Part shown: piece by piece, positions 10,137 through 44,874 of the stretch
Layout of the letters: every line of letters begins with the position of its first letter
Numbering within the stretch: the stretch's first letter is position 1
Assembly: GCA_951406725.2 (NCBI GenBank)
Contig: OX597826.1
Span: forward strand, 78,616,001 to 78,680,000
Reading direction: 5' to 3'
DNA from: Octopus vulgaris
Taxonomy: Eukaryota
Length of the DNA: 64,000 nucleotides
The notes under the pieces: generated by a model
The model's database searches: none
Seen by the model: the letters and a program-made list of their open reading frames with translations, nothing else
What the model was told of the DNA's origin: nothing
Translations under genes and position numbers: made by a program

Positions 10137-12176
10137 ACTATAAGATAAGATTTCGCACACATCCCCAGTTTCTGAAGGCGTTATTCAGATAGATAGAAGA
10201 GCATACGGCTTTTCCTAGCAACCAATCAAGAACCTCCAATGACGATAACTCAATTTTAAACTAAAGCACCACCCGGCAAATCGTATTATTTGTTTATAAA
10301 ATGAGTGATTAAGTTCCATAAATTTTATTTAGCTTTGGAAGTGTTTTCCCTGAAGTGTTTTGCATCCTTCGTGGAAACCGAATGTAAAAATCATTGAACA
10401 ATTTTGAAGTCTTACAGAAAACATCCATAACTCTCAGCCATAAAAGAAATGGCTCTAAGCTATAAAAGAGATGGCTCTCGGCCATAAAAGAGAACTGGCT
10501 CAATGGCATCACAAACGAAGTCGGTTTTTAACGGATCGGCTTAAAACACGCGTAGAATATTTTTAAGAAATTTACATACATACAAAATGTTAACGTGTTT
10601 ATATTTTTAGATGAGAACGTGTTGAAAAGTGTATTTGAATGTACTCGTGCGTATTTGCGCAATTATTTATGTACATATGCGATTGCAGATATTTAATGCA
10701 CGTTGTGTACGACAGGTGCAAGGATATATACATGTGTGCACAGACACATGAGATGTGTATGGCAGGGTTTTGGTTGAATTTGAGTGTCGGTGATACTGTT
10801 ACGTGCAAGTATGCGAATCTAATAATTCCGTCTTTGTTGTTAATTTTCCTTACAGGGATCTACCCTATCCCGGATTTATGCAAAGTTCCCGGATTATTGC
10901 TGAAGTCATATCGCGCCAACACTAGATATGTGTTGTCAGAAGAGAAGAGTAGATTCTGTTCGCCATCTTGTCACAACAGCTTTTCTTTTCTTTTTTTTCT
11001 TTTTTCTTTTTTCTTTTTTTTTTTTTTCACTTTTCAATCCAAAATGGTTGACAAAGCGGGGACGTCAGCACGCCTGGAAAATTTTGGTTTCAGCTAATTG
11101 CTTTCAGCTGACTGAATTAAATTACACACAAACACACACACACACACACACACACACACACACACACACGAGCATATATACATACACGCAAATATGTGAT
11201 GTTGTAATACATTTATACATTACTTTATAAGCATATATACATATATATATATGTATGTATGCACGAATGTATAGGCGTGCGTCTGTGTGTGTGTGTGTGT
11301 GTGTGTGTGTGTGTGTGTGTGTGTGTGTGTGTGTGTGTGCGTGCGTGCGCGTGTGTTACTTCCCTGTCGTTAAATTGCTTAATTGTCTGATCTATTAAGA
11401 AGCTGTCAAAATCAAAATATGTCTGTACTGCTTGCTTTCAGTTGTACAGGTGGTGGCGCTGCCAGCGACACTTTAAATGCTCATGGCGGTTTGTGTGGTA
11501 GGGGGTTCTTTTCTATAGTAATAGCAACAGCAGCAGCAGCAGCAGTAGTAGCAATGATGGTAGTAGTAACAGCTGTAGTAATAGTAGTAGTAGTAGTTAA
11601 TTTTATGTTACTTTTTACTATTAAATATCTTTATTAAATGATAGCTTGAATGTTCAGTCTGAGTTCTGTATTTTAATTATTGGTAATTTGCATGCAAAGA
11701 TTATGTTTGGGAGCTTGTATTCTCCTAATTGCATTCGCCAATGGCTTCCTACTTAAAACTGAAGTGTGATGTATCTTATCTTTCATATAGATTTATAATT
11801 ACAGCAGTGGGCAAACTATTTCTCCTTTCTTTTCTCTCTCTATCTCTCACTTCCTCTCCTAACCACCGGGTTTCTATTTCAAAAGATGTATGTGCATACA
11901 CACACAAAATATATATGTGCATACACACATATATGTATATATATATATAAGTATATATATATATATATATATATATATATATATATATATATATATATAT
12001 ATATATATATATATATATATATATATGTATATATATGTATATATATATATATATATATATATATATATATATATATATATATATATATATATATGTATGT
12101 ATGTATCTATGTATGTATGTATACGAATATACACACATATATATAAATACACTTTTCGGTATTATCTTCCAAGAAT

Positions 12177-12296
12177 ACAGTTCTATATTTAAGATATGAG
12201 GAATTATGAAGACTGGAAGGTATCTCAGCCGAAACGTTGCGTTAACAACAAACAAGATGAGGAAAAATATCCGTCAAACGTAAATAATGTAAATAA
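12177..12296 (+). mobile_element. 120-bp Penelope-like fragment with partial hammerhead, flanked by a 14-bp direct repeat
   Basis: TATCTTCCAAGAAT at 12163-12176 and 12297-12310; inside is TGAAG-ACTG...CAGCC-GAAAC-GTTGC-GTT. Confidence 0.55.
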
Positions 12297-12462
12297 TATC
12301 TTCCAAGAATTTCGGGGCTTTATGTTCTCTGGTTATGCTCTGATAAGTCAGTATGTTCCAAGAGTCACTAATCAAATTATTTTCGTGAAAGTAATTAATA
12401 AATTACTGAAACCATGCTTTCATTTATTGAATACCAAGCACTTTTATTACAGATTTTTTTAA

Positions 12463-12680
12463 GGTGGCAACGTGAGCAGTTGTTAGGGGGTCGGAAGAAA
12501 TTTATTTTTAGGTAGCTCTTTAAGTTCTGAGTTTAAGCCCGGCCGATTTCAACATTCCGTTTCATTCTGTGAAGATCGATAAAAAAAGAAGTACCGGTCA
12601 TGTGCTGGGGTAGATATTAGCGACTATTCTCTTGTCCTGAAAACTTTTAGCCTTATCTCTAAATTAGAAACCATTCTTTG
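12463..12680 (+). mobile_element. SINE family B, old diverged copy
   Basis: GTTCTGAGTTTAAGCCCGGCCGA...TTTCATTCTGTGAAGATCGATAAAA..AAGTACC..CTGGGGTAGAT aligns by eye to family B. Confidence 0.6.
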
Positions 12681-12744
12681 GATCGAGATTTTCGCCGCGA
12701 AAAACATTCTTATCGAAATGTGAGTATCATTCAATGCTTATACT

Positions 12745-13127
12745 GGAGGCGCAATGGCCCAGTGGTTAGGGCAGCGGACTCGCGGTCATAGGATCGCGGT
12801 TTCGATTCCCAGACTGGGCGTTGTGAGTGTTTATTGAGCGAAAACACCTAAAGCTCCACGAGGCTCCGGCAGGGGATGGTGGTGATCCCTGCTGTACTCT
12901 TTCACCACAACTTTCTCTCACTCTTACTGCCTGTTTCTGTTGTACCTGTATTTCAAGGGGCCGGCCTTGTCACTCTCTGTGTCACGCTGAATATCCCCGA
13001 GAACTACGTTAAGGGTGCACGTGTCTGTGGAGTGCTCAGCCACTTACACGTTAATTTCACGAGCAGGCTGTTCCATTGATTCGGATCAACCGGAACCCTC
13101 GTCGTCGTAACCGACGGAGTGCTTCCA
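12745..13127 (+). mobile_element. tRNA-derived SINE, family C
   Basis: tRNA-like head GGAGGCGCAATGGCCCAGTGGTTAGGGCAGCGGACTCGCGGTCATAGGATCGCGGTTTCGATTCCC; near-identical inverted copy at 59982-60365. Confidence 0.9.
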
Positions 13128-42033: not shown

Positions 42034-42106
42034 TTCTCGACATATGTTTCGAAGGCTGCATATTCCTATGTTTTTTGTGCATTTTGATGTCGACATAAGT
42101 TCCTTG

Positions 42107-42191
42107 ATTTTCCTGAGGAGAAATCTGCATAATGTACTCCTTATTCCTTCGGAATTAGGAATATGCAGCCTTCGAAACATATGTCAAGAAT
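42107..42191 (+). ncRNA. Type I hammerhead ribozyme motif
   Basis: AUUUUC-CUGAGGA-GAAauCUGCAUA...UAUGCAGccUUC-GAAA-CAUAUG-UC-AAGAAU: intact core, GUC site and palindromic stem III ACAUAUGU. Confidence 0.72.
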
Positions 42192-42414
42192 AAAGGATAT
42201 TTGTTAACTAGTCGTTCAACTCCATTCTTTCATATACTTATAATTTTAAAATAAACACAAATTTCCGCACGAAGACACGTAGTCTATACCCTAGGGACGT
42301 AGCTTCTACCGTGTTCTTTCTGATGTGAATTTGCTACCCAGGTATCGGTTATCTTTCGAATTATCCTTAATAAGATAATTCATTCAATTACTCAAATATA
42401 TATATATATATATA

Positions 42415-43030
42415 TCAGGTCATTCCATAAGTTCTGTCCGAATTTTGAATAAAGAAAACAAGTGATGAAATGTTATATCTAATTGAAATTTAATCCTCAA
42501 TGTACTTTCTCTGATTATCTATGACTTCCTTCCATCAATTTACAAGCTTTTAAATCCCATCAATGTAAAACTGTTTTGGTTTCAAAGCGAAGAACTCTAA
42601 AATGTCAGTTTCAACCTCCTCCTGGCTTGCGAAAGTTATGTCCTCCAAACGATTCTGTAAACTACGAAACAAATGGTAGTCTGAAGGAGCAAGGTCGGGA
42701 GAATAAGGTGGATGAGGAATTTTTTCCCAACCAAGCTCTTCAATTTTCTGTGATGTGATCTTTGCAGTGTGGAGTCGCGCATTGTCCTGATGAAACATCA
42801 CTCCTTTTCTTTGAAGCTTGGTTCAAACGCTCTAATTGCCGACAGTAGACTGGAGCATTGATTGTTGCATTAAGTGGTAACAATTCAAAGTGAATTACTC
42901 CTTTGCAATCCGACCAGATAGAGAGAAGAACCTTTTTTCCATGAATGTCCTTTAGACATTCTAAAATACTATTAAATTTCATTCTGTTTTAAAAAAAGTA
43001 AAATCGGACAGAACTTATGGGATGACCTAA
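42415..43030 (-). mobile_element. Internally deleted copy of the same mariner (~616 bp, both TIRs)
   Basis: TCAGGTCATTCCATAAGTTCTGTCCGA...TCGGACAGAACTTATGGGATGACCTAA in (TA)n; retains FHQDNA and YSPDLAPSDY; the 5' two-thirds of the ORF is deleted at ~42947. Confidence 0.95.
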
Positions 43031-44874
43031 TATATATATATATATATATATATATATATATATATATATATATGTATGTATGTACGTATGTATATATATG
43101 TATGTATGTATATGTATGTATGTATATGTAAATGTATATGTATGTATATACATATAATATACATGTATGTATGCATGTACATATGTATATATATATACAG
43201 ACATATGCATTTATGTATATATTTAATGTTTCAGATCGCCCCTTTTCACCAAGCTTACACAGACTGTATACCCATACAACAACGGCAATCTGAATACAGC
43301 TGGAATTTTCCATTAGTTGTTACGATAATAGACATGCCTGTTGAAGGCATTTCTATTATAGATGGCGAGCAGAGATGTTGTAAGATCATCACCTGTAACT
43401 GAACTCGCATATATCGGATTAAGAGAGAGCGTCACAAATTTGAAACCAATTTTAAACTGATTCTGTAAAGAAAAACTGCGCTGTATTGTCACAACAAATA
43501 TGGGATTTCAAAAACCATATAATAAATGATGCTACTGTAAACTGAAACATGGGGAACAAGTCAAACGAAACAAATGAAACAGTCACAAAGTCATCTTAAG
43601 CAAAACTAAGAAGTTTAAAATACTAACAATATCAGCCAATGACATGAGGATATTCAATCTTTTACTCTTTAAACGCATTTATGTACCGGATGTTTTTCGT
43701 TGTAAAATGGATAGCCACCGACTCATTTCTCGATATGTACGAATGCAACTCTTCTCCCCGACAAAAATATGGTATTAATACCAATGTGTATATTTGGCGG
43801 TGCTCTTCCTTCCAAATGAAAATTCCATGACCTGAGATAAACATTTGGCTTGCTATGTTCCAGCTACATCTTAAGAATGTTCTCCTTCACCTGAAGCTGC
43901 ATCAGAAAAAAGTACAAAATGTGAAATGCCGAGTAGTGACCCATCGAAGGAGAATAAATATTTACTTTCTACATCTACTGAGGCTTTCTTCTTTTTACTT
44001 GTGAAACATAAACGAAAGTATGTGTATTATGTAAATATATATGTACTGTGTGTGTGTCTGTGTGTAAGTGAATACACAAAATTATAATTGGTTATCATTA
44101 TATATACACATGTATATGTATATATATACATACATGAATATTTTTCGATTTGTGCATTAAAGCTACCGTTAGTTTCATGTTAAGAAAAATATCTTAATAT
44201 CTTCACAAATTTTCAAGCCGATCACATGGACGAATAGTGTCCGTCTTCATTTTGGATGGAAACACGAAAAATCTCGGGAAATTGTATTGTAAAGGAAACA
44301 AGAAATTAAGGGGTGGTACTTTTGGAAGACACATTTTGGGGGAAAAACTGTGTTGGGTGGAGTTTGTTTGCATTATGTTATATTCTGGGTGCATGTGATG
44401 TTCGTATGTTTGTGGGCTGAGGGTGTTCACCAGTGGTGGGAGCATGTATTTTGTATGTGTGGTGTTCGTATGTTGCAATTTTCACGTTGAGGGAAAGACT
44501 ATCGTTATGGGATTCGCAGAGTGGGTGGTGATTCCTCCGACATTTCAAAGAGAATATTTATCCACCAACGTGGTGTTGAGCACCCGTTCCCATTGTTCAT
44601 TTACGTATATGTGCGTGTATATGTATGTATATGTATATATATATATATATATATAATATCATATTATAGTATATTTTTATATATTATATATATATATATA
44701 TATATATATATGTATATTATATTATATATATATTATATTATATTATATAATATTATATTATATTATATTATATTATATTATATTATATTATATTATATTA
44801 TATTTTTAGACCCAATCCACCTCTGTATATATATATATACCAAATAATAATAATGGCAAAAAATTTTTTAATAC

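Follow-up and report, generated by a model that had tools for sequence, protein, structure and literature searches.

What are the hammerhead-ribozyme motifs scattered through a 64,000-nucleotide stretch of the Octopus vulgaris genome, and what kind of element carries them? The stretch (positions 78,616,001 to 78,680,000 of contig OX597826.1, assembly GCA_951406725.2; G000:C13:78616001-78680000 in our numbering) is called the window throughout, and genome-wide counts refer to the 2.8-Gb genome of 227 contigs. A sequence-only reading had described a hidden layer of self-cleaving RNA, comprising six to nine hammerheads borne by non-autonomous mini-elements that lack open reading frames (ORFs). 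We find ten motifs, and interpret them as the hammerheads of ten dispersed repeat families, named by window locus (A, 41282; B, 42107; C, 19393; D, 18194; E, 22616; F, 25676; G, 18845; H, 12205; I, 15170; J, 44159). Four of these families represent ends of Penelope-like elements (PLEs), those without genes are likely copied by PLE enzymes, and the ribozyme is predicted to be active in the source transcript, not in the mostly damaged copies; we assign this interpretation a probability of roughly 85%.

The motifs exceed chance by a wide margin. A relaxed descriptor (CYGANGA, GAAA and UH; stems of at least 4, 3 and 3 bp; one mismatch allowed per stem) matched the window six times (25684+, 41286+, 42113+, 19440-, 18845- and 18247-), against 0.16 +/- 0.39 matches (maximum 2) in 100 local dinucleotide shuffles, the kind of control that the sequence-only reading had proposed for a genome-wide scan. 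Genome-wide, the pattern CTGANGA-N10-40-GAAAC-NNNN-GTH returned 18,316 matches versus 1,524 for the reversed pattern, and among the first 30 of these stem III was palindromic in 22 and stem I reached at least 3 bp in 24, neither of which the pattern demands; when stem I strands were instead paired across different loci, at least 3 bp were found in 70 of 784. Chance matching in low-complexity DNA might be entertained on the grounds that a strict, zero-mismatch descriptor found nothing in the window, and that an Rfam scan of the whole window produced microsatellite noise, with no hammerhead among the 150 matches listed of 173. The shuffled and reversed controls refute it, however, and copies elsewhere in each family lie nearer the ideal fold than do those in the window, such that we give this explanation practically no weight. 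Rfam Hammerhead_1 scored an intact family B copy at 29.2 bits, under the gathering score of 34, and matched neither family I nor a family related to G that is described below. The same relaxed descriptor found 21 matches in 502 kb of flanks elsewhere, equivalent to 2.7 per 64 kb for a comparison drawn from the flanks of repeat loci and not from a random sample (shuffles, 1-3 in all); the window is thus about twofold rich, and nothing special.

The ten window copies are listed below, each hammerhead with the element that bears it.

12206..12243 (+): family H hammerhead, 3' part, of the classic minimal PLE type (stem II, GAAA, ACGU palindrome, U17); element 12206-12299, lacking in this copy C3-U4-G5 as well as the stem I 5' strand, inverted piece ~12173-12208.
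15170..15220 (-): family I hammerhead, GUGAACA core (G3:C8), bulged G9.1, 5-bp stem II (G10.1-C11.1), AAUAUU palindrome, U17; full-length, ORF-less element 15028..15233 (-), ~205 nt, whose 5' end is fixed 20 nt ahead of the core and whose 3' end takes either of two positions.
18192..18253 (-): family D hammerhead, CUGAAGA core, U.U at 10.1/11.1, palindromic stem III, A17, predicted cut after 18198; element 18057..18484 (-), read as an ORF-less circularly permuted unit with a period of ~430 nt (~320 in the window copy).
18808..18851 (-): family G hammerhead, CUGAGGA core, C.A at 10.1/11.1, family stem III ACCUAGGU, C17; element 18646-18888, covering part of a tandem unit of 350 nt.
19393..19444 (-): family C hammerhead, CCGAUGA core (U4C), A.A at 10.1/11.1, ACAGCUGU, A17; element 19191-19524, inverted 5' piece included.
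22615..22678 (+): family E hammerhead, CUGAGGA core, U.U, ACCAUGG..., UH site deleted; element 22609-22859, inverted piece ~22469-22612, from a family read as permuted units of ~520 nt without ORFs.
25676..25721 (+): family F compact hammerhead, CCGACGA core (U4C), stems I and II of 8 and 3 bp, stem III with one broken pair; element 25412-25768, inverted piece ~25328-25419.
41282..41385 (+): family A hammerhead, CUGAGGA core, A.C at 10.1/11.1, 77 nt from A9 to G12, family stem III ACAAUUGU; element ~40625-41584, extended upstream by a long stretch of low-complexity sequence; neither an ORF nor a wrap was found.
42101..42197 (+): family B hammerhead, 12-bp stem I with one mismatch, G10.1-C11.1, ACAUAUGU, C17; element 42070-42415, young (copies ~97-99% identical), inverted pieces 42033-42068 and 41576-41659.
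44161..44219 (-): family J hammerhead, U3:A8 core (UUGAAAA), long stem II, 3-bp stem I; element 44136-44270, inverted piece ~44550-44673, 5' ends clustered ~60 nt before the core.

All nine sites singled out by the sequence-only reading are hammerheads, each coordinate falling at the end of a stem I or of a core, and the four stem III palindromes it quoted are present; the motif at 18845(-) was overlooked, which brings the total to ten, and the proposed density of one per 4-5 kb becomes ten per 64 kb. The CUGANGA core that it gave for the motif holds in four of the nine (18194, 22616, 41282 and 42107), whereas 19393 and 25676 have CCGANGA, 15170 has GUGAACA, 44159 has UUGAAAA, and 12205 is cut inside the core; likewise, the full topology claimed at 22616 is a hammerhead whose UH cleavage site is lost, 4 nt being missing relative to its family. 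Only the family C copy retains all family pairs and the core. Because the other nine have each lost at least one pair or core base (the pair beside the cut site in family B, for example, and two pairs of the 7-bp stem I in family I), a "layer of self-cleaving RNA" overstates function in the window, where the copies are mostly fossils and probably inert for the host. Together the ten elements amount to ~3.9 kb, or ~6% of the window. Between 41576 and 42068, the inverted 5' piece of the B element lies in two parts, with ~370 nt of other DNA between them, and borders on the A element, forming a nested insertion.

That these are different, multi-copy families was borne out genome-wide, where each yielded between 243 and 2,383 first-look candidates, which are not copy numbers (A, 1,355; B, 1,657; C, 2,383; D, 243; E, 321; F, 1,002; G, 605; H, 1,736; I, 882; J, 1,201), and each has its own palindromic stem III. 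Column-wise majorities over the 19-29 best-scoring copies per family, a sample biased towards the window copy, describe a complete type I hammerhead in every family; copies from one place or one duplication (L009, L065, L077 and L111) were removed before folds and inversions were counted. The family core and all family pairs are preserved in 5/29 copies of A, 21/25 of B, 12/23 of C, 3/19 of D, 4/20 of E, 10/20 of F, 7/20 of G, 8/20 of H, 18/20 of I and 3/20 of J. By majority the core is standard in A, B, D, E, G and H, carries U4C in C and F, and is altered by paired swaps at 3:8 in I (G3:C8 in 20/20 copies) and J (U3:A8 in 18/20). Positions 10.1-11.1 are paired in B, F, H and I, mismatched in A, C, D, E and G, and ambiguous in J, and a nucleotide is bulged at 9.1 in H and I. 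Stem III is perfectly palindromic in seven of the ten families and near-palindromic in three, and in eight its predicted self-duplexes have energies of -6 to -11 kcal/mol; such folding predictions are mildly supportive of the model. The covariation that is real, in the stems of the first 30 genome-wide matches, is between families. The copies also share an insertion pattern: in all ten families 5' ends are variable or clustered and 3' ends fixed, inverted 5' pieces occur (from 4/20 copies in F to 15/23 in C, whose query itself held an inversion), and (TA)n flanks were seen by inspection.

Several observations beside these majorities indicate a wider repertoire. Family E copies (L114-L132) have two forms of stem III, both palindromic (6/20 and 2/20), plus a 7-nt form in 4/20, which suggests subfamilies that would have kept the palindrome. 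Loci L278-L307 and the genome-wide match list contain many more hammerhead families, each with its own stem III palindrome, and the standard pair at 10.1/11.1 is present in only 11 of the first 30 genome-wide matches. A U3:A8 pattern was in modest excess genome-wide (7,215 matches versus 5,209 for the control), and what looks like a further U3:A8 family (stem II of 4 bp, stem III palindromic) occurs several times in its first 100 matches (e.g. G000:C1:4739439, 6756085 and 22836390).

What carries the motifs differs between families. Protein-coding PLEs are the source of four families, B, C, F and H, which represent their truncated 3' ends. In family B, whose copies lie between (TA)n flanks, the 5' end varies from +1 to -831 and the 3' end falls at one of two sites ~160 nt apart; the longer copies reach a GIY-YIG frame that ends ~560 nt upstream (Pfam GIY-YIG E=0.0025, below the curated cut-off). 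Two full-length copies (L235 and L236; ~3.6-3.8 kb) are ordered as pseudo-long terminal repeat (pLTR), reverse transcriptase (RT), GIY-YIG and pLTR, with a hammerhead in both terminal repeats (L235 4716-5040 and 8173-8507; L236 3127-3351 and 6530-6713). The 3' end of the long family B stubs coincides with the first ATG of the ORF in the full-length copy (L235:5039-5040), as predicted by internal priming near the ORF start (PMC11167929; here and below, published work is represented by the parts of each source that were compared). The family B ORF (L233-L238) has a long Asn/Ser-rich stretch instead of a cysteine linker between the RT thumb and the endonuclease, an arrangement also seen in a close homolog (P0001). 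At L237:3272-4201 (-) a Penelope/Poseidon-type RT (Pfam RVT_1 E=4e-5) lies directly upstream of a B copy, two PLE types thus adjoining. In four contig sets aligned to full-length B, a back-going joint was considered as a sign of circles or expression and set aside, as it is explained by the two pLTRs, with coverage mainly in the terminal repeats; there was no spliced joint among the four joints listed from these sets.

In family F, RT and GIY-YIG are linked in L272 and L274, with the hammerhead downstream of the ORF in the former and upstream in the latter. In family C the endonuclease is on the right strand in 7 of 15 upstream-walk loci, five of which have the hammerhead in the same locus, and GIY-YIG lies 1.1-1.3 kb upstream in the longer copies; in family H, a Penelope/Poseidon-type GIY-YIG ends ~85 nt upstream in 2/20 copies. 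[quoted passage not shown] No RT or GIY-YIG ORF was found for A, D, E, G, I or J. The search for linked ORFs proposed by the sequence-only reading therefore yielded GIY-YIG in B, C, F and H and RT in B and F, and its suggested tie to PLEs and retrozymes stands, through this linkage on the one hand and the permuted units of D, E and G on the other. Its broader suggestion, that all ten are non-autonomous, ORF-less ribozyme mini-elements, draws on the window, where no copy of the ten families contains an ORF, on the families D, E, G and I, which are ORF-less, and on A and J, to which upstream walks linked none. It is refuted for the four families that extend upstream into GIY-YIG genes (in B and F also into RT) and are 5'-truncated protein-coding ends, as the spread of B 5' ends attests, and as an account of all ten we consider it exceedingly improbable.

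Families D, E and G, as judged from their sequence organization, are ORF-less, circularly permuted, retrozyme-like units. Their own downstream sequence is wrapped seamlessly onto the 5' side in 7/19, 6/20 and 6/20 copies, respectively, at periods of ~430, ~520 and ~350 nt, and stop-to-stop frames do not exceed 63 codons (L254, L265, L308, L311, L313, L314 and L317 were also removed as duplicates from wrap counts). The family D element in the window exemplifies this, its upstream part being a direct copy of its own downstream part. Wrapping is absent in B, F, H and I, was not found in A and C, and is confined in J to one doubtful copy of 34. In L171, two decayed family G hammerheads stand 350 nt apart, and a tandem pattern, with 0 matches in the control, occurred 51 times: once in G, the other 50 times in a younger family related to it. 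The latter (L327-L336, L338 and L339; e.g. G000:C4:86543160-86543883) has a unit of 352-362 nt, 82-99% identity, dimers and trimers, and a core with U3:A8 or U3.G8 and U.U at 10.1/11.1; complete two-hammerhead pairs are found in L338 and L339.

Family I follows neither plan. Its core runs G3-U-G-A-A-C8-A9, followed by a bulged G, a 5-bp stem II starting G-C, GAAA, a 6-nt palindrome and U17, and its 7-bp stem I is flush with the core. An exact 45-nt pattern matched 464 times in the genome (control 0) and a looser one 9,477 times (control 14), the samples examined from both being the first matches on one contig; matches to a general G3:C8 pattern were mainly attributable to chance (62,784 against 48,313 in the control), and this pattern was set aside. 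Across 71 copies, nine loci having been removed as duplicates, agreement with the majority letter falls from ~75% to background 20-23 nt before the core, and one duplicated pair is the only one with non-inverted upstream sequence in common. The element is ~205 nt long, with two 3' ends, no ORF and no wrap. In the window copy (15028-15233, -) the short 3' end is an inverted repeat, over 6 bp, of the 5' end, and many inverted pieces join there. A start motif with extra upstream bases matched three times, the upstream sequence being the inverted element, and a count of inverted pieces in 61/71 copies was left unused as inflated by simple repeats. As the 5' end is fixed upstream of the cut site, we infer that the copied RNA is uncut and probably starts there. 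Family I (~9,500 copies) is predicted to cut itself. Tentatively, and at somewhat less than even odds, we propose that it is a previously undescribed, PLE-dependent solo pLTR of ~205 nt, with its own start 20 nt before the core and a linear, non-tandem RNA, whose G3:C8/U17 hammerhead would be active but deliberately slow, leaving enough uncut RNA for copying.

These families bear on a second alternative, whereby all ten are 5'-truncated stubs of autonomous PLEs and there are no independent non-autonomous families. Such a reading is standard for solo minimal hammerheads (PMC4209133), and the PLE insertion pattern is common to all families; yet it is contradicted by the self-wrapping of D, E and G at constant periods with frames of at most 63 codons, by the dimers and trimers of the G-related family, which account for 50 of the 51 tandem matches, and by the 71 family I copies, which, the duplicated pair aside, share no non-inverted upstream sequence. 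We consider it very unlikely. For family A, the upstream walk showed shared sequence extending ~850 nt upstream into low-complexity DNA. In family J, an RT upstream of copy L219 was rejected as a linked ORF because no other J copy shares it, and copy L226, with a 410-nt period, was left out of the wrap count, an inverted piece lying between its two parts.

How, then, might one genome come to hold all of these? Following published PLE biochemistry, the PLE protein would nick AT-rich DNA, and reverse transcription would start inside the RNA, 50-350 nt downstream of the hammerhead. The hammerhead would be copied first, and copying would usually stop within a few hundred bases; placement of the ribozyme in the first-copied part would explain the many stubs that contain it. 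Two hammerheads may pair via their palindromic stems III, perhaps with help from the PLE protein, and such dimers would cut multi-unit transcripts into unit-length RNAs, which in D, E and G may circularise to yield wrapped copies. Family I would be a solo pLTR that kept its promoter.

A number of results weigh against the interpretation that we prefer, namely ten families of PLE ends and PLE-copied elements with ribozymes active at source. No intact PLE ORF was seen, the full-length B copies being broken by stops or frameshifts, and the RT pieces of B, without a Pfam RT match, were assigned by motifs and by full-length homologs; RT and endonuclease are both present in B and F, and endonuclease in C and H, with one weak RT match in C. 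The upstream walk of A found no ORF and no wrap, J has neither a linked ORF nor a consistent wrap, and two-hammerhead tandems of D and E returned no matches to exact patterns, which are weak for old families. Within families (19-29 copies), the core is conserved barely or slightly more than other positions, as expected if copies decay neutrally after insertion. The hammerhead was never the predicted minimum-energy fold of the monomer, lying 0.6-8.2 kcal/mol above the minimum. In addition, 10.1/11.1 is mismatched or ambiguous in six of the ten families, position 17 is U in H and I, and the predicted self-duplexes are very weak in H (-1.7) and I (-0.2), all of which would slow cleavage. Cleavage at UH in source transcripts is itself predicted from sequence, and for an anole PLE hammerhead cleavage is not needed for insertion in vitro (PMC11167929).

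The last of these points also favor a third alternative, in which the folds are inherited but non-catalytic even in source elements, and instead mark the RNA for binding or packaging by the PLE protein. This would fit the many families mismatched at 10.1/11.1 and the U17 of H and I, as it would the low in vitro activity of metazoan PLE hammerheads (PMC4209133) and the anole system, in which insertion in vitro dispenses with cleavage and no RNA ends fall at the cut site (PMC11167929). On the other hand, the compensating swaps at 3:8 (G:C and U:A) keep a pair formed in the catalytic fold, H17 is never G in the ten family majorities, and natural ribozymes, some of them reportedly active, include examples of U10.1.U11.1, U4C and U3:A8 (PMC3088659). 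We judge the non-catalytic alternative to be unlikely, and retain predicted activity in the source transcript as part of the preferred interpretation.

In most respects the octopus families resemble systems already described. Since 2014, PLE hammerheads have been known to number thousands per genome, mostly as solo copies and "probably related to truncated PLEs" (PMC4209133), and those of metazoans cleave weakly and as dimers (PMC4209133; PMC6765202). The type I fold with a short palindromic stem III, the mostly solo motifs from truncated copies, the many families per genome, the bulged 9.1 (H and I), U3:A8 (J) and the hammerheads in both pLTRs of full-length B all match the PLE pLTR hammerheads of Cervera and de la Pena (2014, PMC4209133). 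Unlike those, most families here have a palindrome of 6-10 nt instead of the minimal one, and 10.1/11.1 is often A.C, A.A, U.U or C.A, whereas a conserved G-C is stressed there; the compared parts of that paper contain no natural G3:C8 and name no cephalopod. The order of RT then GIY-YIG, the pLTRs, an optional 3' tail, the inverted 5'-truncated piece and (TA)n flanks agree with C-terminal endonuclease-bearing (EN+) PLEs (Craig et al., 2021, PMC8557442), among which a CX2-5CxxC-type linker before the endonuclease is expected in Neptune; by motif only, as for all our PLE clade assignments, C and F may be Neptune-like and H like Penelope/Poseidon, while B combines a Neptune-like endonuclease with an Asn-rich stretch, without Neptune's cysteine linker (PMC8557442). 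From anole Poseidon PAc (Frangieh et al., 2024, PMC11167929), two internal priming sites that give long and short 3' ends, AT-rich targets and a hammerhead just upstream of the priming region are all familiar; there the hammerhead cuts only with protein, and C3G/G8C is an engineered partial rescue, which in family I is the natural state. U3:A8, U4C and U10.1.U11.1 are likewise known natural variants (PMC3088659).

Coral, mussel and axolotl are known to carry retrozymes (Cervera and de la Pena, 2020, PMC7229834), which are regarded as non-autonomous PLE derivatives (Li, Clavereau and Pollet, 2026, 10.64898/2026.07.22.740005, the compared parts of which name no mollusc); cephalopods are covered in the compared text of neither paper. 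Families D, E, G and the G-related family are like these animal non-LTR retrozymes in being ORF-less head-to-tail units with one type I hammerhead each, in U.U at the base of stem II (D, E and G-related), also found in the axolotl retrozyme, and in their proposed PLE origin and mobilisation (PMC7229834; 10.64898/2026.07.22.740005); unlike the long arrays of retrozymes, however, they are mostly 1-1.5-mers with PLE-type inversions, known from genomic copies. The G3:C8 swap was found in print only as an engineered variant in the compared parts of PMC11167929 and PMC3884650, and its novelty as a natural core is provisional, since Repbase and the Lunse 2017 survey, the largest of such variants, lie outside this comparison. 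Penelope elements are known in cephalopods (PMC8967140), and cephalopod PLEs are listed in the supplements of PMC8557442. That the elements would be invisible to annotation, as the sequence-only reading supposed, is weakened by a 2026 Octopus vulgaris repeat annotation that attributes 6.83% of the genome to PLEs, in 190 families (PMC13282606 supplement); in the compared parts of its text and supplement, neither "hammerhead" nor "ribozyme" is mentioned, and our literature search, over article listings and the papers cited here, found no report of a cephalopod hammerhead.

The remainder of the window is rich in microsatellites and short repeats, and general repeat finding was dominated by the former. 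Positions 1-1801 hold a purine-rich tandem repeat with a unit of ~69 nt, and 773-1434 a 9-nt tandem array of 74 copies. Four broken frames have putative assignments: a Helitron-like helicase piece at 3704-4369 (+), a mariner transposase-like frame at 22933-23839 (-), an RTE-type RT-like frame at 53393-54670 (-) and a CR1-type RT-like frame at 54787-55548 (+).

The finding is mostly of a known kind of system, hammerheads in PLEs and retrozymes being already known, in a lineage for which we found no report. Its interest lies in the role of PLE hammerheads, which cleave poorly alone and whose cleavage is dispensable for insertion in vitro. One genome with autonomous PLEs, permuted units and a fixed-start linear element offers a side-by-side test of whether the ribozyme makes circles, frees RNA, or is kept slow on purpose. 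Standard descriptors require C3, G8 and a paired 10.1-11.1, and censuses that use them would consequently miss family I and many other families. In the G3:C8 family the classic rescue mutant has a natural counterpart and, if our tentative account of it is true, then family I, the U3:A8 and U4C families and the frequent 10.1/11.1 mismatches would together constitute a natural library of attenuated hammerhead cores. More broadly, PLE ends, together with their parasites, may account for a large share of the repeats that are short and unclassified in genomes of this kind.

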